64,000 bases of DNA from Escherichia phage vB_Eco_J-01, in the sequence record PQ438393.1; one strand, given 5' to 3'. Shown here one piece after another: positions 42,390-45,136 of this stretch (its first letter is position 1; the number at the start of each line of letters is the position of its first letter). Under the pieces are notes generated by a model, which did not search any database, was not told the origin of the DNA, and worked only from the letters and a program-made list of their open reading frames with translations. The position numbers and the translations under genes are program-made.

Positions 42390-42465
42390 TTGGTCGTGGT
42401 AAACGGAGTCGAACCGTTGTTTCTCGATTATCGGTCGAGTGTACTAACCATCTGTACGATACCAC
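42390..42465 (-). tRNA. tRNA, anticodon GAU (Ile), CCA encoded
   Basis: Hand-folded: acceptor 6 bp + U1-G72, D-stem GUAC/GUAC, anticodon stem CUCGA/UCGAG with loop CCGAUAA (C33 unusual), T-arm AACGG-UUCGACU-CCGUU. Confidence 0.6.
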
Positions 42466-42470
42466 AATAA

Positions 42471-42547
42471 TTGGCAGCAAGGTGAGGAATCGAACCCCCT
42501 GATCTATGGTTTGGAGCCATATTGAGTACCATACTCTTTTAAATCTA
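42471..42547 (-). tRNA. tRNA-like, anticodon arm CCA (Trp); acceptor stem cannot be paired - possible pseudogene
   Basis: T-arm (loop UUCGAUU) and perfect anticodon hairpin UAUGG-CUCCAAA-CCAUA present, but no sequence complementary to the 3' acceptor strand at the expected 5' position. Confidence 0.35.
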
Positions 42548-42611
42548 CCCGGCTATGAGTTCCTTGAAGTGTCAATGTAACTTAATCATTACACCAGAAG
42601 GGAGGTATTTA

Positions 42612-42690
42612 TTGGAGGCGGGAGTAGGATTTGAACCTACGATCTCCAGCATATGAAACTGGCGAGGACGACCAGACTCCTCTATCCCGC
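42612..42690 (-). tRNA. tRNA, anticodon CAU (Met or Ile2), CCA encoded
   Basis: Hand-folded: T-arm GUAGG-UUCAAAU-CCUAC, anticodon loop UUCAUAU, D-loop 11 nt with GG, U8 A9; U1-C72 mismatch. Confidence 0.65.
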
Positions 42691-42705
42691 ACAATCTGTA
42701 ATAAT

Positions 42706-42781
42706 TTGGTTGATAGTAAGAGGATCGAACTCTTCTCGCAATGCCTTATGAAAGCACTCGAAACGCCAGCTTCACACTATC
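42706..42781 (-). tRNA. tRNA, probable anticodon CAU, non-canonical D region
   Basis: Perfect 7-bp acceptor and T-arm AAGAG-UUCGAUC-CUCUU; anticodon hairpin GUGCU-UUCAUAA-GGCAU fits only with a 6-nt D-loop and 6-nt variable region. Confidence 0.5.
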
Positions 42782-42869
42782 AATGGCTAACCCTTTACAA
42801 CCCGTCTTGGCGTGGTATCCTTAACAGGACGGTGGATATCCGTTGCAAACCCTATGATATCTCTTAGAT

Positions 42870-42954
42870 ATGGTAGCTAAGGTGAGACTCGAACTCACAA
42901 TCCCCTGGGGCAATACGTTCTAAGCGTATCGTGTATACCATTCCACCACTTAGC
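42870..42954 (-). tRNA. tRNA-Leu (anticodon UAG), type II
   Basis: T-arm GUGAG-UUCGAGU-CUCAC; anticodon stem AUACG/CGUAU with loop CUUAGAA; long variable arm; 3-bp D-stem. Confidence 0.75.
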
Positions 42955-43112
42955 CATAATAAGTACACCACTGTAAGAAGCCTCAATGTGCTATTGACAG
43001 TTAACCAAGTCTACTCCTTGGATGGTGTTATTTGGTACAGAGAGATGGTAACGATCCATCCTTTCTACCTTTTCAGGGTAGCACTAATCCGTCTCAGCTA
43101 TCTCTGCAAAAT

Positions 43113-43188
43113 TTGGTCAGTGCGGCAGGACTCGAACCTGCGACCCGAAGCATCCAAAGCTCCCACGCTACCAACTGCGCTACGCACT
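43113..43188 (-). tRNA. tRNA-Pro (anticodon UGG)
   Basis: Perfect 7-bp acceptor, D-loop AGUUGGUA, anticodon loop UUUGGAU, T-arm GCAGG-UUCGAGU-CCUGC. Confidence 0.8.
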
Positions 43189-43195
43189 GTAAATA

Positions 43196-43270
43196 TTGGC
43201 TGGAGATCTAGGAATCGAACCTAGTCATCACGACTTCAAAGGCCGTTGCCTTCCCACTAGGCTAATCTCC
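43196..43270 (-). tRNA. tRNA-Gln (anticodon UUG)
   Basis: Perfect 7-bp acceptor, D-stem GCCU/AGGC, anticodon loop CUUUGAA, T-arm CUAGG-UUCGAUU-CCUAG. Confidence 0.8.
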
Positions 43271-43369
43271 AATAAAACTAAAAATCACTTAAAAAGAACC
43301 GCTAGAGTTTGAAGGAGAAAACCATGAGCGAAAAGAGAAATTTTCTCTAGCGATTCCATTTAAATAATC

Positions 43370-43444
43370 TTGGAGCGAGTAACAGGACTTGAACCTGCAC
43401 CTGGAGGGTGGAAACCTCATATGCTACCATTAACACTATACCCG
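43370..43444 (-). tRNA. tRNA-Gly (anticodon UCC)
   Basis: Acceptor with one G-U pair, anticodon loop UUUCCAC, T-loop UUCAAGU. Confidence 0.75.
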
Positions 43445-43500
43445 CTTAACAATATTACTCTAACATATTATTAGCCCCTTTGTCAAGAGGCTTTTGATAT

Positions 43501-43824
43501 TTATTTTAAAATAGTAGATGAACCACGTCTGTTTAGATATGCAATAGTAAAGTCCAAATCACCTATTTCTTCAGGTTCCCACTGACCTTCTAAGCCATAA
43601 CAAGAACAATGATATGCGTGTACTTCATAAAACAAAGATGTTTTCATATCATAAAAATAAACGTGAGATTCGCCTTCATAATATGCACAATCATAAGTGG
43701 CAGAAAGAATTACAATGTTATCCTTATCTAACTCTACTTCATAATATCTTTCAACATCTTCAATATCATCAAAACCATCGAAAACATTGATATTAAAATA
43801 TTTCTCTAACTCTTTTTCTGTCAC
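43501..43824 (-). CDS. hypothetical protein inside the tRNA cluster (start adjusted to GTG at 43824)
   Basis: ORF track start 43923 would overlap tRNA-Thr; in-frame GTG at 43824 has AAGGAG 5 nt upstream; Cys/His-containing acidic protein. Confidence 0.45.
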   Translation of the reverse strand: MTEKELEKYFNINVFDGFDDIEDVERYYEVELDKDNIVILSATYDCAYYEGESHVYFYDMKTSLFYEVHAYHCSCYGLEGQWEPEEIGDLDFTIAYLNRRGSSTILK

Positions 43825-43846
43825 ATACACTCCTTTAGAGTTAAAT

Positions 43847-43921
43847 TGGTGCTCCCACAAGGACTCGAACCCTGATAAGTTGCTTACAAGGCAACCGTAA
43901 TAGCCGTTATACGATAGGAGC
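43847..43921 (-). tRNA. tRNA-Thr (anticodon UGU)
   Basis: Anticodon stem GUUGC/GCAAC perfect with loop CUUGUAA; T-loop UUCGAGU; acceptor with one G-U pair. Confidence 0.75.
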
Positions 43922-44000
43922 AAAATATTTGCTTGGTAGGATTTGATACCTACAATTCTAGAAAATTCTAGAGGTTTCTATTAACTCTACAAGCACTATT

Positions 44001-44085
44001 TGGCGATGGATCAAGGATTTGAACCTTGCTAGAACTTTCGTTCACGGATTAACAGTCCGTCGCCCAACCACTAGGCCAATCCATC
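44001..44085 (-). tRNA. atypical tRNA: anticodon GUU (Asn) on a type II body with long variable arm
   Basis: Perfect 7-bp acceptor GAUGGAU/AUCCAUC, discriminator G, T-arm CAAGG-UUCAAAU-CCUUG, perfect anticodon stem ACGGA/UCCGU with loop CUGUUAA, 15-nt variable arm forming a GAAC-GAAA-GUUC hairpin. Confidence 0.65.
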
Positions 44086-44092
44086 TTTAATT

Positions 44093-44179
44093 TGGTGCAG
44101 GTAGTTGGACTCGAACCAACGAAGCCCCGAAGGGCAAGAGATTTACAGTCTCCAGCAATTGCCGCTATGCGATACCTAC
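44093..44179 (-). tRNA. tRNA-Tyr (anticodon GUA), type II
   Basis: Discriminator A, anticodon loop CUGUAAA, long variable arm with GCCC/GGGC stem and UUCG loop, T-arm GUUGG-UUCGAGU-CCAAC. Confidence 0.8.
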
Positions 44180-44184
44180 GTGTT

Positions 44185-44260
44185 TGGTACATCGTGAAGG
44201 ATTCGAACCTTCGACCTTGGAGTTAAAAGCCCCTTGCTCTACCAACTAAGCTAACGATGT
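44185..44260 (-). tRNA. tRNA-Lys (anticodon UUU)
   Basis: Perfect 7-bp acceptor, D-loop AGUUGGUA, anticodon loop CUUUUAA, T-arm GAAGG-UUCGAAU-CCUUC. Confidence 0.8.
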
Positions 44261-44386
44261 ATAAATTATCTTTAAAATAGCCAGTGTTTGCGGCACTTGA
44301 CTATGGGATATCGGTAAGATGGTGGGGGCCATCTGCCGAAAGTTTACTCTATTAAAGTAAGATGACAAGCTACATTAAAGATAACT

Positions 44387-44472
44387 TGGCGGTAGATGTA
44401 GGACTTGAACCTACACGCCGTTTCCGACGACAGTTTAGCAAACTGTTGTGGCTACCATTTCACCAATCTACC
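44387..44472 (-). tRNA. tRNA-Ser (anticodon GCU), type II
   Basis: Perfect acceptor, anticodon stem ACAGU/ACUGU with loop UUGCUAA, 15-nt variable arm, 3-bp D-stem, T-loop UUCAAGU. Confidence 0.8.
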
Positions 44473-44480
44473 GTTTTTAA

Positions 44481-44645
44481 TTATTCAAAACAACCGGAAT
44501 CTTTTTGTTCTTCTTTTACCATACGAATATTCTTACCATCTTCAGATTGTTGAAGATTAGAATACTCATAAACAACTTTATTATTTACAATCTTAACTCC
44601 GGTAACAACCTGTCCAATAGTTTTATAATTCATAAAATTACTCAT
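44481..44645 (-). CDS. small hypothetical ORF between tRNA genes (weak)
   Basis: In-frame ATG at 44645 just 3' of tRNA-Ser(UGA); no clear RBS; ORF track start 44681 would overlap the tRNA. Confidence 0.2.
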   Translation of the reverse strand: MSNFMNYKTIGQVVTGVKIVNNKVVYEYSNLQQSEDGKNIRMVKEEQKDSGCFE

Positions 44646-44651
44646 TGAATT

Positions 44652-44741
44652 TGGAGGAAGATAATGGAGTCGAACCATCACCGTATCGCTACAATGGGCC
44701 AGGGTTCAAACCTGGTTGCGCACCGCTGCGCCCTACCTTCC
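44652..44741 (-). tRNA. tRNA-Ser (anticodon UGA), type II
   Basis: Anticodon stem CCAGG/CCUGG with loop UUUGAAC, 19-nt variable arm, T-loop UUCGACU, acceptor with one G-U pair; position 8 is A. Confidence 0.7.
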
Positions 44742-44754
44742 AGTTATTATACTT

Positions 44755-44784
44755 TAAATCTAACATAAAACTATCTTGCTTGTC
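44755..44784 (-). promoter_or_regulatory. weak sigma70-like promoter candidate (TTGACA-N17-TTAGAT) upstream of tRNA-Ser(UGA)
   Basis: Minus-strand TTGACA (rc of 44781-44786), 17-nt spacer, weak -10. Confidence 0.3.
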
Positions 44785-44804
44785 AAGTAGTTTTTAAAAC
44801 TTTT

Positions 44805-44886
44805 TGGCCGGGGTGACAGGATTCGAACCTGCATACTCCAATTACTCGGTTAACGCCTGATTAGAAGTCAGGTGAGATACACCCCG
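44805..44886 (-). tRNA. atypical tRNA-like gene: UCU (Arg) anticodon hairpin, no canonical D-arm
   Basis: Perfect GC-rich 7-bp acceptor CGGGGUG/CACCCCG and T-arm (loop UUCGAAU); hairpin CCUGA-CUUCUAA-UCAGG lies only 7 nt after the acceptor, leaving 23 nt before the T-arm. Confidence 0.45.
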
Positions 44887-44897
44887 TTTTCATAGTA

Positions 44898-44926
44898 ACT
44901 ATAACAAAAAACTAAGTAAATGTCAA
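44898..44926 (-). promoter_or_regulatory. sigma70-like promoter (TTGACA-N17-TATAGT) upstream of tRNA genes
   Basis: Minus-strand TTGACA (rc of 44921-44926), TATAGT (rc of 44898-44903); predicted start within a few nt of the tRNA 5' end at 44886. Confidence 0.5.
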
Positions 44927-44943
44927 GATATTTTTTTAGGTGT

Positions 44944-45029
44944 TGGTGCAAGTGGAGGGATTCGAACCCTCAAGCATTTAAGCGTTGCGTTTTAAGCACA
45001 ATGTGTATCACCAATTCCACCACACTTGC
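44944..45029 (-). tRNA. tRNA-Leu (anticodon UAA), type II
   Basis: Perfect acceptor GCAAGUG/CACUUGC, anticodon loop CUUAAAA, 13-nt variable arm, T-arm GAGGG-UUCGAAU-CCCUC. Confidence 0.8.
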
Positions 45030-45060
45030 ATATAGGAGATGCATAGCACCTCCTTTTAAA

Positions 45061-45136
45061 TGGTGGTTCCCCAGGGTTACAATCCCTGCCCTCAACACTT
45101 ATGAGGTGTGCGCTCTCGTCAGTGAGCTATGGAACC
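45061..45136 (-). tRNA. tRNA-Met-type (anticodon CAU)
   Basis: Anticodon loop CUCAUAA, perfect D-stem GCUC/GAGC, U8 A9; T-stem CAGGG/CCCUG with atypical loop AUUGUAA; acceptor 6 bp + 1 mismatch. Confidence 0.6.

Follow-up and report, generated by a model that had tools for sequence, protein, structure and literature searches.

The array studied here has its closest described relatives in the clustered tRNA genes of large lytic coliphages. Compact one-strand arrays of CCA-encoding tRNA genes are carried by T4, T5, Felix O1 / wV8 and phi92-like phages, with internal promoters, small ORFs and anticodons biased to A-ending codons; relatives also have HNH endonuclease genes. For individual tRNA genes of unusual order, Soma et al. 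reportedly described in 2007 circularly permuted tRNA genes in red and green algae. In these genes the entire 3' half comes before the 5' half, and a normal cloverleaf is regained by processing. Unusual folds include the 8/4 tRNAs and allo-tRNAs, amongst them phage 8/4 tRNA-Ser and tRNA-His (Mukai et al. 2017, PMC5389517), an "E-loop" tRNA whose fifth loop separates the acceptor arm from the D arm, and D-armless mitochondrial tRNAs such as the nematode mt tRNA-Ser(UCU) (both PMC7609411).

The window (the whole 64,000-nt stretch of DNA that was analysed) belongs to a Justusliebigvirus (phi92-like) phage, and deposited genomes annotating the same tRNA array are 97-99% identical. The array is already known as the tRNA gene cluster of a phi92-like E. 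coli phage, and its reading as a phage tRNA operon in a preliminary description of this DNA is supported. At the level of the array, we see no difference from the coliphage clusters, whose features listed above it shares; the Arg and Trp annotation differs. The array as a whole is ordinary, and its unusual content is a rearranged tRNA-Arg and a rearranged tRNA-Trp. We favor, with a probability of about 70%, a phi92-like tRNA operon of 18 CCA-encoding genes in which the rearranged Arg and Trp tRNAs would be used in decoding.

The 18 tRNA-type genes lie on the minus strand at 42391-45136 (Table 1), 16 of them cloverleaf tRNAs and two (Arg and Trp) not. The preliminary description had the strand right but the number as about 17. 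The ARAGORN search that it suggested finds 16 genes, all of them minus-strand genes within 42391-45136, and misses the Arg and Trp elements. Rfam RF00005 places 14 genes above its gathering score, including one that ARAGORN misses, at 44808-44886 (38.6 bits), and itself misses the Trp element and three other genes of the array. The total of 18 is reached by adding the Trp(CCA) element at 42472-42554. All 18 genes end in an encoded CCA, just as had been claimed. Published annotations of relatives have 15-16 tRNAs, with the Trp element absent and the Arg element either omitted or labelled "tRNA-OTHER"; in phage Paula, the tRNA labels 001-016 all fall within the same array and none is Arg. The preliminary description likewise listed no tRNA-Arg, and left the element at 44805-44886 undescribed.

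Table 1. Features of the tRNA array and its flanks, in the direction of the genes.
Feature	Coordinates	Strand	Basis and remarks
CAU tRNA copy 1, Ile2-type	45061..45136	-	ARAGORN; below Rfam threshold
Strong hairpin, first CAU tRNA / tRNA-Leu	45033..45054	-	-13.4 kcal/mol, z = -4.55; no U tract
tRNA-Leu(UAA)	44944..45029	-	ARAGORN, Rfam
Sigma-70-like promoter	44898..44926	-	TTGACA-17-TATAGT with TG extension; 11/12 matches
Rearranged tRNA-Arg(UCU)	44805..44886	-	Rfam 38.6 bits; model R1 102.5 bits; covariation
Sigma-70-like promoter, upstream of tRNA-Ser(UGA)	44757..44786	-	10/12; region conserved in Phapecoctavirus
tRNA-Ser(UGA)	44652..44741	-	ARAGORN; Sec-like D arm (5-bp stem, GCGG tetraloop), long variable arm, U73
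Small ORF, 50 aa, Phi92_gp111 family	44481..44633	-	phrog_22441, function unknown; annotated in Paula
tRNA-Ser(GCU)	44387..44472	-	ARAGORN, Rfam
Structured 126-nt spacer RNA, four-way-junction fold	44261..44386	-	z = -4.71
tRNA-Lys(UUU)	44185..44260	-	ARAGORN, Rfam
tRNA-Tyr(GUA), class II	44093..44179	-	ARAGORN, Rfam
tRNA-Asn(GUU)	44001..44085	-	ARAGORN; long variable arm (4-bp stem, GAAA loop), G73
Degenerate tRNA-like spacer	43922..44000	-	acceptor and T stems kept, no CCA, 6-nt "anticodon" loop
tRNA-Thr(UGU)	43847..43921	-	ARAGORN, Rfam
Small ORF, 107 aa, Phi92_gp114 family	43501..43824	-	phrog_8792, function unknown
Sigma-70-like promoter, upstream of tRNA-Gly	43457..43486	-	10/12
tRNA-Gly(UCC)	43371..43445	-	ARAGORN, Rfam
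Long conserved hairpin spacer, invariant loop	43272..43370	-	z = -4.13
tRNA-Gln(UUG)	43197..43271	-	ARAGORN, Rfam
tRNA-Pro(UGG)	43114..43189	-	ARAGORN, Rfam
tRNA-Phe(GAA)	43033..43107	-	ARAGORN, Rfam; T loop AUCGUUA (A54, U58)
tRNA-Leu(UAG)	42871..42955	-	ARAGORN, Rfam
tRNA-Met(CAU), elongator-like	42707..42782	-	ARAGORN; below Rfam threshold
CAU tRNA, initiator-like	42613..42691	-	ARAGORN; U1xC72 mismatch, 5-bp D stem, U73
Rearranged tRNA-Trp(CCA)	42472..42554	-	model R2 105.7 bits; pair counts
tRNA-Ile(GAU), C33	42391..42466	-	ARAGORN, Rfam
Conserved structured trailer, tRNA-Ile to terminator	42284..42390	-	87-93% identity in three other genera
Putative intrinsic terminator	42250..42277	-	AGCCUCC-UUAUC-GGAGGCU then UUUUU; hairpin 42277-42259 and T run

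The least ordinary gene in the array is the Arg(UCU) element, which we regard as a conserved tRNA of rearranged fold and not as a broken copy. It consists of a 7-bp acceptor stem, UAU, CUC, A, the anticodon hairpin (loop CUUCUAA), CGUUAACC, GAG, UAAUUGGAGUAU, the T arm, G73 and CCA. A D hairpin is missing; the stretch that follows the acceptor stem is paired with the one beyond the anticodon arm, and the D-loop-like UAAUUGGAGUAU comes after the 3' strand of this nested helix. The Rfam alignment accordingly has 4 nt in place of the D arm, plus a 20-nt insertion. In this fold, the three nucleotides past U8-A9-U pair with three past the anticodon arm, and the anticodon hairpin is therefore nested in the "D stem"; the D-loop sequence, which includes the equivalent of G18-G19-A20, forms a 12-nt single strand directly before the T arm. 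Amongst 49 distinct sequences, 94.8% of the cells are paired and the covariation score is 0.80 (0.19 when shuffled), counts that overstate the number of independent events because the sequences are related. For the nested helix alone, 100% of the cells are paired, against 74.5% in shuffles and 11-42% when the helix is slid, with UA/AU/GC pairs at one position and CG/GC/UA at another. The 3-bp nested helix is not predicted by RNAalifold, and the single-sequence MFE fold has a small CCGA-GUAA-UUGG hairpin at its site. The search patterns prescribed the motifs CGUUAA, GUAA and UGGAGUAUG, so their invariance in the alignment is partly by construction.

The Arg element is found in 273 GenBank phage records from many unrelated groups, which span Ounavirinae, Vequintavirinae, Demerecviridae, Asteriusvirus, Kuravirus and Streptomyces phages, and in 70 IMG/VR loci (71 pattern matches, one of them false). 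Its anticodons are exclusively arginine (UCU, UCG, CCU, ACG), all but one of the 49 sequences have A or G as discriminator, and divergent members found with model R1, outside the pattern constraint, retain UGGA. The bacterial Arg identity set is A20, C35, U/G36 and A/G73 (PMC9976931), and the family retains these ArgRS identity elements. The closest relatives that lack the element (KP13-26, Tr1 and ESCO25) have a canonical Arg(UCU). In a sample of partial and redundant tRNA-rich loci, a canonical Arg(UCU) is present in 2 of the 46 with the element and in 6 of the 21 without it. Like the D-armless mitochondrial tRNAs, the element passes from acceptor stem to anticodon arm without a D hairpin, and its secondary structure is a three-way junction. 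It differs from them in its complete T arm (5 bp, UUCGA loop), in keeping a D-loop-like GG-A strand that is shifted to the 3' side, in the covarying 3-bp helix around the anticodon arm, and in occurring in phages of bacteria with a normal translation apparatus. As in the permuted algal genes, the order of the segments is non-standard, but the phage gene has just two pieces out of place, the D loop and the 3' strand of the D stem, in a molecule that is continuous from acceptor to CCA and has no obvious way of being processed into a cloverleaf. Our literature search found no description of this fold.

The Trp(CCA) element had been described as lacking a pairable 5' acceptor strand and as a possible pseudogene. 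We find the strand, AGCCGGGU at 42554-42547, 9 nt farther upstream of the D-like hairpin than in a cloverleaf; it pairs with ACCUUGCU, and the pairing covaries in homologues. The order is an 8-bp acceptor stem, A, GAU, UUAAAA, a small GG-loop hairpin, the anticodon arm, G, AUC, AG, a 4-bp T stem, G73 and CCA, to which Rfam gives only a weak tRNA-Sec match (22.4 bits). An extra 3-bp helix links the stretch following the acceptor stem with the "variable" region, enclosing the small GG-loop hairpin and the anticodon arm. Across eight distinct homologues, likewise related sequences, 96.9% of the cells are paired, and the acceptor stem, the T stem and the extra helix all covary: the eighth acceptor pair is AU/UA/CG/UG and one extra-helix pair is AU/CG/GC/UA. 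The element is present in Klebsiella, Citrobacter, Hafnia and other phages, and the homologues retain A1-U72, G73 and the CCA anticodon with compensatory changes in all five helices. With the displaced strand and the covarying helices in hand, we reject the pseudogene assignment for this gene. Its 8-bp acceptor and 4-bp T stems (12 bp in total) resemble those of 8/4 tRNAs, but the described phage 8/4 tRNAs are Ser and His, and this one has no long variable arm. It also resembles the "E-loop" tRNA in carrying additional nucleotides past the acceptor stem, ahead of the D-like hairpin; here these pair with the variable region and form no loop of their own.

Several of the cloverleaf tRNAs carry deviations of their own. 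The top Rfam match of tRNA-Ser(UGA) is tRNA-Sec (35.3 bits). Its long D stem, tetraloop and long variable arm are like those of 8/4 tRNAs and allo-tRNAs, its D stem covaries in KP13-26, and its MFE fold has 8-bp and 4-bp stems, by which an 8/4 split of acceptor and T stems is possible. tRNA-Asn shows covariation of its variable-arm stem across four genera (GAAC/GUUC, GAGA/UCUC, GAGG/CCUC, GUUC/GAAC). The preliminary description was silent on the arms of both genes. It had correctly reported C33 instead of U33 in tRNA-Ile(GAU), where the anticodon loop reads CCGAUAA; C33 is also seen in Klebsiella phage KB57.

The three CAU anticodons are confirmed by ARAGORN, and from sequence features the genes are consistent with the suggested set of initiator, elongator Met and Ile2 (identity elements from the table in PMC9976931). 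The gene at 45061-45136 has Ile-type C29-G41, U12-A23 and A73, with an abnormal T loop (AUUGUAA) and no GG in the D loop; its Tr1 and ESCO25 orthologues are more canonical. The gene at 42707-42782 has U4-A69, A5-U68 and A73, the bacterial MetRS set. A non-standard D loop had been noted for it, and indeed the D loop has 6 nt and G8 replaces U8, features also present in KP13-26. In the gene at 42613-42691, the 1x72 mismatch is kept in four genera (U.C, C.C, U.C, A.C), and G2-C71 and C3-G70 are also initiator-like; it departs from the initiator type in its U73 and in lacking the three anticodon-stem G-C pairs.

The G+C content of the phage is 38%, and A-ending codons are far commoner in it than in E. 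coli. In 50 ORFs of the window, AGA occurs 10.6 times per 1000 codons (27% of Arg), ATA 10.1, CTA 11.4, ACA 33.6, CCA 16.8 and GGA 15.8, and all six are read by U34 tRNAs encoded in the array. Since most of the array tRNAs read A-ending codons, which the phage favors, the array would top up scarce decoders; it may also stand in for host tRNAs destroyed by defence nucleases. We infer that the minus strand is transcribed from an upstream promoter and from three strong internal sigma-70-like promoters up to a single intrinsic terminator, and host RNase P, together with further RNases of the host, presumably cleaves the transcript. In both rearranged elements, the 3-bp helix could substitute for a D stem by stacking on the anticodon stem, and a GG motif would stay available to the T loop, which makes an L shape of normal dimensions plausible. 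Most likely, the two receive their amino acids from host ArgRS and TrpRS and take part in decoding.

The main value of the array might instead be counter-defence over codon supply, with its deviations (C33 Ile, class II Asn, Sec-like Ser, rearranged Arg and Trp) making the tRNAs poor substrates for anticodon nucleases, either the host's or a phage nuclease shutting off the host. This is compatible with use in decoding and alters only the reason for the rearrangement. It is possible but doubtful: the density of deviant tRNAs in the array is unusual, C33 in KB57 counts as an independent origin, and among its genes are those for Lys, Tyr, Asn and Arg, isoacceptors attacked by PrrC/PARIS, retron Eco7 PtuAB, colicin E5 and colicin D, but the Arg and Trp (CUCCAAA) anticodon loops are canonical in form (U33, A37), without visible alteration relative to the host loops, and the codon-usage match is strong by itself. 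A hypothesis of this kind has been published (PMC10264068). The Arg and Trp RNAs could also be non-translational tRNA mimics, acting as decoys, inhibitors or sensors for tRNA-binding proteins, the tRNA-targeting defence nucleases of the host among them; acceptor stem, anticodon loop and T arm would then be preserved only for recognition by the target. Their fold departs strongly from the usual ribosome and EF-Tu substrates and, taken alone, could equally have a non-translational role. Some irregular 8/4 tRNAs are charged yet unused in translation (PMC5389517), and phage tRNAs have been proposed, and sometimes shown, to counter anticodon nucleases (PMC10264068; PMC11464382). We nevertheless consider mimicry unlikely: the anticodon changes of the Arg family are confined to arginine boxes with A20-like, C35 and A/G73 retained, the element occurs where a canonical Arg(UCU) is absent, AGA is heavily used by the phage, and the acceptor/T branch has 12 bp in both RNAs, the length recognized by EF-Tu (PMC5389517). 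That the irregular copies (Trp-like, Arg-like and the CAU gene at 45061) are pseudogenes decaying through tRNA gene turnover fits the ARAGORN and Rfam misses, the "tRNA-OTHER" or missing GenBank annotation of the Arg element, the truly degenerate remnant at 43922-44000, and the loss of G18-G19, C56 and the 7-66 pair in the CAU gene relative to its Tr1 orthologue, but it is very improbable given that compensatory changes maintain every Arg and Trp helix across distant phage groups, that their anticodon loops and CCA ends are intact and that a near-consensus promoter belongs to the Arg gene; such decay is possible for the CAU copy at 45061 only.

Promoters inside the array and a terminator past its end had both been proposed, and we find three strong sigma-70-like matches and a terminator-like hairpin with a T run. 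The -10 hexamer of the best match ends 11 nt ahead of the Arg gene; overall, the promoter scan gives 18 sites, against 8.6 +/- 3.0 in shuffles. The proposed separation of the genes by 5-8 nt spacers or small ORFs holds for five junctions (5-7 nt) and for two with ORFs; the other ten are non-coding, 15-126 nt long, and several are conserved and structured. The hairpin at 45033..45054 is annotated as a terminator in phage Paula. The spacer RNA with the four-way-junction fold is 84% identical in Phapecoctavirus ESCO25, and the acceptor and T stems of the degenerate tRNA-like spacer covary with the ESCO25 copy. In the long hairpin spacer, the stem covaries and the loop is invariant across four genera. 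The trailer that follows tRNA-Ile is found in 133 phage records.

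The array itself is already known, and its general role is textbook. Region 42200-45400 aligns over its full length, at 97-99% identity, to cardinal, JLBYU50, Paula and other Justusliebigvirus genomes (phi92-like, Stephanstirmvirinae), in whose records a tRNA array is already annotated, and the region is matched, at least in part, by 486 phage records. The labels tRNA001-tRNA016 of Paula all fall inside the array, so the array appears to be the whole annotated tRNA set of that phage. ARAGORN reports 16 tRNA genes, all on the minus strand, and the Rfam tRNA model reports 14 above threshold. 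Rfam misses three of the ARAGORN genes, tRNA-Ser(UGA) and the two Met tRNAs at 42707 and 45061, and adds one that ARAGORN does not see. Together with a Trp element that neither calls, we count 18 tRNA-type genes, on the strand given in the preliminary description, which had put their number at about 17. All 18 end in an encoded CCA as described, and the ARAGORN structures bear out the three CAU anticodons and the C33 of tRNA-Ile(GAU). Of the non-standard D loop and variable region ascribed to the copy at 42707, the D loop stands, being small in the ARAGORN structure. We also recover the promoters within the array, as three strong consensus-level matches, and the terminator, as a hairpin followed by a T run. 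The account of the spacers as 5-8 nt or small ORFs holds at five junctions (5-7 nt) and at two junctions with ORFs, and fails at the other ten, which are non-coding and 15-126 nt long. The two junction ORFs belong to the PHROG families phrog_22441 and phrog_8792, and the small ORFs in or adjoining the array have PHROG matches only to families of unknown function.

Coordinates of the tRNA array, its rearranged members, neighbouring elements and loci from homologous sequences
Feature	Sequence	Coordinates	Strand
tRNA array (ARAGORN genes)	window	42391-45136	-
Rearranged tRNA-Arg(UCU)	window	44805-44886	-
Rfam tRNA match to the Arg element, 38.6 bits	window	44808-44886	-
Rearranged tRNA-Trp(CCA)	window	42472-42554	-
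tRNA-Ser(UGA)	window	44652-44741	-
CAU tRNA at 42613	window	42613-42691	-
CAU tRNA at 42707 (Met)	window	42707-42782	-
CAU tRNA at 45061 (Met)	window	45061-45136	-
Promoter match, 11/12	window	44926-44898	
Promoter match, 10/12	window	44786-44757	
Promoter match, 10/12	window	43486-43457	
Terminator	window	42277-42259	
Trailer, tRNA-Ile to terminator	window	42284-42390	-
Spacer with long hairpin	window	43272-43370	-
Degenerate tRNA-like element	window	43922-44000	-
Spacer with four-way-junction fold	window	44261-44386	-
Hairpin between first two tRNAs	window	45030-45060	-
Terminase large subunit	window	38789-40873	-
Nicotinamide phosphoribosyltransferase	window	45883-47616	-
Arg fold, UCG/UCU tandem	locus L104	3788-3869, 4087-4168	
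Arg fold, ACG form	locus L057	2689-2767	
Arg fold, ACG form	locus L084	3220-3300	
Arg fold, ACG form	locus L094	5323-5403	
HNH neighbourhood of Arg element, Roth37	locus L004	1501-2100	
HNH neighbourhood of Arg element, Kamaji	locus L008	1498-2147	
HNH neighbourhood of Arg element, wV8	locus L003	2502-3222	

The gene reported only by Rfam, on which the preliminary description is silent, is a rearranged tRNA-Arg(UCU). It scores above the RF00005 gathering threshold of 29 bits; cardinal labels it 'tRNA-OTHER' and Paula leaves it unannotated. In the Rfam alignment, the acceptor stem, the anticodon arm and the T arm all align, the 15 D-arm positions are reduced to 4 nt, and there is a 20-nt insertion ahead of the T arm. 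Like a cloverleaf, the element has a 7-bp acceptor stem and a T arm of 5 bp whose loop is UUCRA, and it ends in GCCA, the discriminator plus CCA. Its anticodon loop, CUUCUAA, has 7 nt, including U33 and a purine at 37, and sits on a 5-bp stem that covaries at all five pairs. There is no D-arm hairpin between positions 8-9 and the anticodon arm, and the partner strand is found 3' of the anticodon arm instead. Across 49 distinct sequences of the family, the acceptor, anticodon and T helices covary, with 94.8% of cells paired and a covariation of 0.80 versus 0.19 in shuffled alignments; the acceptor and T-stem cells are 99.1% and 99.2% paired. The three nucleotides after an invariant U8-A9-U10 pair with three nucleotides 3' of the anticodon arm, as CUC/GAG, CGC/GCG, CAC/GUG, CAG/CUG, CAU/AUG, CUU/AAG, CGG/CCG or, on one MAG contig, CCC/GGG. 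This nested helix alone is paired in 147/147 cells, versus 74.5% in shuffles and 11-42% with slid partners. From this pairing, the order is acceptor 5' strand, UAU, helix strand, A, anticodon hairpin, CGUUAA(N)(N), helix strand, UAAYUGGAGUAU, T arm, acceptor 3' strand, discriminator and CCA, such that the D stem encloses the anticodon arm. The D-loop sequence, GG and the A that follows, in effect becomes the single strand before the T arm. Run on the alignment of 49 sequences, RNAalifold returns the acceptor, anticodon and T helices and does not predict the 3-bp nested helix, which we assign solely from the covariation counts. Several motifs of the family were fixed by the search patterns. This constraint does not apply to members from the blastn and covariance-model searches, which have the same plan. 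We tried two other readings of the element. A long variable arm, suggested by a CCGA-GUAA-UUGG hairpin in the single-sequence MFE fold, is paired in 72.4% of cells versus 72.8% when shuffled, shows no covariation, and is rejected for the conserved fold. A tRNA pseudogene is ruled out by the wide conservation and the compensated helices.

By blastn, the 82-nt Arg element is present at 82-86% identity in 273 phage records, almost always unannotated. The phages that carry it span widely differing groups, namely Felixounavirus, Mydovirus and other Vequintavirinae, Demerecviridae (Sugarland, Roth37, Kamaji), jumbo Asteriusvirus phages, Kuravirus and Streptomyces Karimacvirus. Pattern scans of IMG/VR add 47 and then 71 loci, one of the latter being a false match. 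The element has no match in 5,426 complete E. coli genomes, and of the 18 pattern matches in 185,579 species genomes the true members lie on only four contigs, all of them MAG contigs (5.5-41 kb), one of which bears 14 tRNA genes. The family therefore appears to be confined to phages and not to be a cellular tRNA. In Klebsiella phage Roth37 and Serratia phage Kamaji, an HNH endonuclease ORF starts 3-8 nt after the rearranged tRNA-Arg, and in wV8 the distance to a downstream HNH gene is about 230 nt.

All anticodons of the family are arginine anticodons. The loops with the anticodon left free in the search are CUUCUAA, CUUCUAC and UUUCUAA (UCU), CUUCGAA (UCG) and UUCCUAA (CCU), and R1, our covariance model of the family, finds more divergent members with CUACGAA (ACG) and other linkers, the ACG forms having shorter linkers 3' of the anticodon arm. 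One contig carries UCG and UCU copies of the fold side by side. Over the four anticodons, C35 is invariant and position 36 is U or G, and the discriminator in the 49 sequences is G in 31 (including the window copy), A in 17 and C in one. The bacterial ArgRS identity set is A20, C35, U/G36 and A/G73 (PMC9976931), and both C35 with U/G36 and A/G73 are found in the element and its family. Every member has UGGA, and this holds for four divergent ones on which the search pattern placed no constraint; by analogy only, the A after GG would stand for the A20 of the set. The acceptor/T branch has 7 + 5 bp. The gene also has its own near-consensus promoter, with a -10 hexamer ending 11 nt upstream. A canonical tRNA-Arg(UCU) is found in the closest relatives without the element (Klebsiella phage KP13-26, Citrobacter phage Tr1 and Phapecoctavirus ESCO25), and wV8 has the element plus only a canonical Arg(ACG) within the locus read. 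Among loci rich in tRNAs, 2/46 of those with the element also have a canonical Arg(UCU), versus 6/21 of those without it; the loci being partial and redundant, the support is weak. We set aside the 'Arg_TCT' of Shigella phage Sf14 as evidence on the fold, as it scores 82.6 on the Arg isotype model and looks canonical.

The second rearranged gene is a tRNA-Trp(CCA), for which the preliminary description found no pairable 5' acceptor strand and suspected a pseudogene. The strand had been sought at its cloverleaf position; it exists 9 nt further upstream. ARAGORN and the Rfam tRNA model do not call the element, and its only match is to tRNA-Sec, at 22.4 bits. We find blastn homologues at 75-80% identity, unannotated in all records, in KP13-26, Tr1, two Hafnia phages and a phage deposited as Listeria LPML1. 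The acceptor stem has 8 bp, AGCCGGGU / ACCUUGCU, followed by A, GAU, a UUAAAA linker, a 4-bp hairpin with an AUGGU loop, 2 nt, the anticodon arm (loop CUCCAAA), 1 nt, AUC (the complement of GAU), 2 nt, a 4-bp T stem with a UUCGAUU loop, G73 and CCA. In eight distinct sequences, 96.9% of cells are paired, versus 82.5% shuffled and 40-52% with a slid partner. The eighth acceptor pair, 8-72, is AU in three, UA in three, CG in one and UG in one, and the alternative pair 49-65 is mismatched, as G.A in the window, A.G in KP13-26 and A.A in Tr1. The extra 3-bp helix is never unpaired, and one of its pairs varies between AU, CG, GC and UA. The 8-bp acceptor and 4-bp T stem, 12 bp in total, are those of an 8/4 tRNA. 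The Sec-like D arm and long variable arm of an allo-tRNA are absent, as the D-like hairpin is 4 bp long with a loop of 5 nt, and the region from anticodon to T stem has 6 nt, of which three are paired in the extra helix. For bacterial Trp identity, G73 as discriminator, the anticodon and the first pair of the acceptor have been reported (PMC9976931); the element keeps G73, the CCA anticodon and A1-U72. R2, the covariance model of the Trp family, scores the window copy at 105.7 bits and also detects more divergent 8/4 Trp genes in Felixounavirus-like contigs, and a metagenome scan for further members found near-identical copies only. The conservation in distant relatives and the compensated helices rule out a tRNA pseudogene here as well.

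The two rearranged tRNAs are alike in that a 3-bp helix joins the strand after the acceptor to the strand before the T stem and so encloses the anticodon arm. If it stacks on the anticodon stem of 5 bp, this helix would give about the length of normal D and anticodon stems together. The acceptor/T branch is 12 bp in both, and the GG motif would still be free for the T loop, in a single strand (Arg) or a small hairpin loop (Trp). Given such stacking, the 12-bp branch and the available GG, a normal L shape seems reachable, through a three-way junction replacing the four-way one. For the Trp gene there is precedent: 8/4 tRNAs have been described, among them Ser and His species from phages and an 'E-loop' form in which the acceptor arm is followed by an additional loop (PMC5389517; PMC7609411), and the gene is a new member or a variant of that group. 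For the transposed D arm of the Arg fold, we found no description in those two papers or in a full-text literature search of incomplete coverage. The nearest analogues differ, as D-armless mitochondrial tRNAs have neither the GG strand nor the enclosing helix, and permuted algal tRNA genes are processed back into a cloverleaf.

The most far-reaching reading, tentative and with a probability of about 0.4, is that phages of many unrelated lineages carry a natural topological tRNA variant, a tRNA-Arg whose D loop and 3' D-stem strand have been relocated 3' of the anticodon arm, plus a second, differently rearranged tRNA-Trp; both would be charged by host synthetases and read by the ribosome, and their altered core would have been favoured as an escape from tRNA-targeting immunity or from an attack on host tRNAs that the phage induces. 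Phage tRNAs have been proposed to be selected for resistance to tRNA-targeting defences (PMC10264068), and the density of structural deviations in the array would be consistent with that proposal. The cloverleaf is treated as almost invariant outside mitochondria, and here we have an apparently phage-restricted tRNA-Arg family with a transposed D arm and four arginine anticodons, found in hundreds of sequenced phages from E. coli to Streptomyces. If this family functions in translation, then ArgRS, EF-Tu, RNase P and the ribosome tolerate a different core topology, and the fold would offer a natural scaffold for orthogonal tRNA design and a concrete test of whether tRNA-targeting defences shape phage tRNAs. 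Routine annotation under-counts phage tRNA sets, since ARAGORN misses both rearranged genes and GenBank records have 'tRNA-OTHER' or nothing, and this biases studies of codon usage and tRNA repertoires.

As for how the array most likely works, the stop codon of the upstream gene lies 7 nt before the first tRNA. The array would be co-transcribed with that gene and also from the internal promoters, transcription would end at the terminator, and host enzymes would presumably process the transcript; CCA addition is unneeded, since CCA is encoded. The anticodon begins with U, reading A-ending codons, in 11/18 genes. Codon frequencies per 1000 in the phage are 33.6 for ACA, 11.4 for CTA, 10.1 for ATA, 10.6 for AGA (27% of arginine codons), 16.8 for CCA and 15.8 for GGA. 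The phage over-uses A-ending codons and the U-starting anticodons match them, which fits a role in codon supply. AGA is rarely used by E. coli.

Other tRNAs of the array also deviate. The tRNA-Ser(UGA) has a long D stem with a tetraloop, GCGCA-GCGG-UGCGC (5 bp), compensated as GCGUA/UACGC in KP13-26, a long variable arm and U73, and its best Rfam family is tRNA-Sec at 35.3 bits, under the cut-off of 47. Both A8-U65 and G49.U65 can form, the three bases are invariant in three homologues, and the MFE fold is 8/4; an 8/4 acceptor/T split is possible, and the gene resembles the 8/4 tRNA-Ser reported in phages (PMC5389517). The tRNA-Asn(GUU) has a long variable arm with a 4-bp stem that covaries in four Stephanstirmvirinae genera, and the Asn tRNAs of Ounavirinae are ordinary. 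Bacterial tRNAs with a long arm are normally Leu, Ser, Tyr and Sec only. An origin of this class II tRNA-Asn by duplication of the neighbouring tRNA-Tyr is not supported, as the two are only 55% identical, no closer than other class II pairs are. The C33 of tRNA-Ile(GAU) recurs independently in Klebsiella phage KB57. The CAU tRNA at 45061 has lost the D-loop GG, C56 and the 7-66 pair relative to its Tr1 orthologue, and is either another deviant tRNA or the single truly decaying copy. The three CAU genes were assigned by inspection of identity elements only: the copy at 42613 has the 1x72 mismatch of an initiator (U.C here, C.C in KP13-26, U.C in Tr1, A.C in ESCO25), and lacks the three consecutive G-C pairs of the anticodon stem (29-31 with 39-41) and A73, its stem being CCAGU/GCUGG and its discriminator U.

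Several elements between and around the tRNAs are also conserved or structured. The spacer at 43272 folds into a long hairpin (z = -4.1) with a covarying stem. Its loop, UUUUCGCUCAUGGUUUUCUCCUUCA, does not vary among four Stephanstirmvirinae genera; it has an anti-Shine-Dalgarno-like CUCCUU on the tRNA strand, and reads AAGGAG-N6-ATG, the start of a tiny ORF (MSEKR...), on the opposite strand. The 126-nt spacer at 44261 has a four-way-junction fold with a 17-bp closing stem (z = -4.7), is 84% conserved in ESCO25, and may be a stable small RNA akin to the non-tRNA species of the T4 tRNA cluster. The element at 43922 is tRNA-like and degenerate; it lacks CCA, its 'anticodon' loop has 6 nt, and its acceptor and T stems continue to covary with those of the Phapecoctavirus copy, in which the loop has 14 nt. 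The hairpin between the first two tRNAs presents AAGGAGG and, 4 nt later, an ATG starting a short ORF, which is probably spurious since it runs into tRNA-Leu on the same strand. Directly upstream of the tRNA operon is a gene for a nicotinamide phosphoribosyltransferase, which matches the Pfam NAPRTase family at 2e-37. Walker A of the terminase large subunit is apparently split by about 160 aa, YGGAAG | C...VTGN | SGKS, and the insert, with first residues CVSAETEYLT and last residues HIFVTGN, by eye looks like a mini-intein; the Pfam Terminase_6N match starts only at residue 201, and no intein family matches at E <= 0.001. Finally, the trailer from tRNA-Ile to the terminator is 87-93% conserved across genera, more than some of the tRNAs, and occurs in 133 phage records. 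It contains a small hairpin as well as a long imperfect one in which changes are compensatory, and may form an H-type pseudoknot, GGAG[GG GUGCG A]CUCC UUAA CGCAC.
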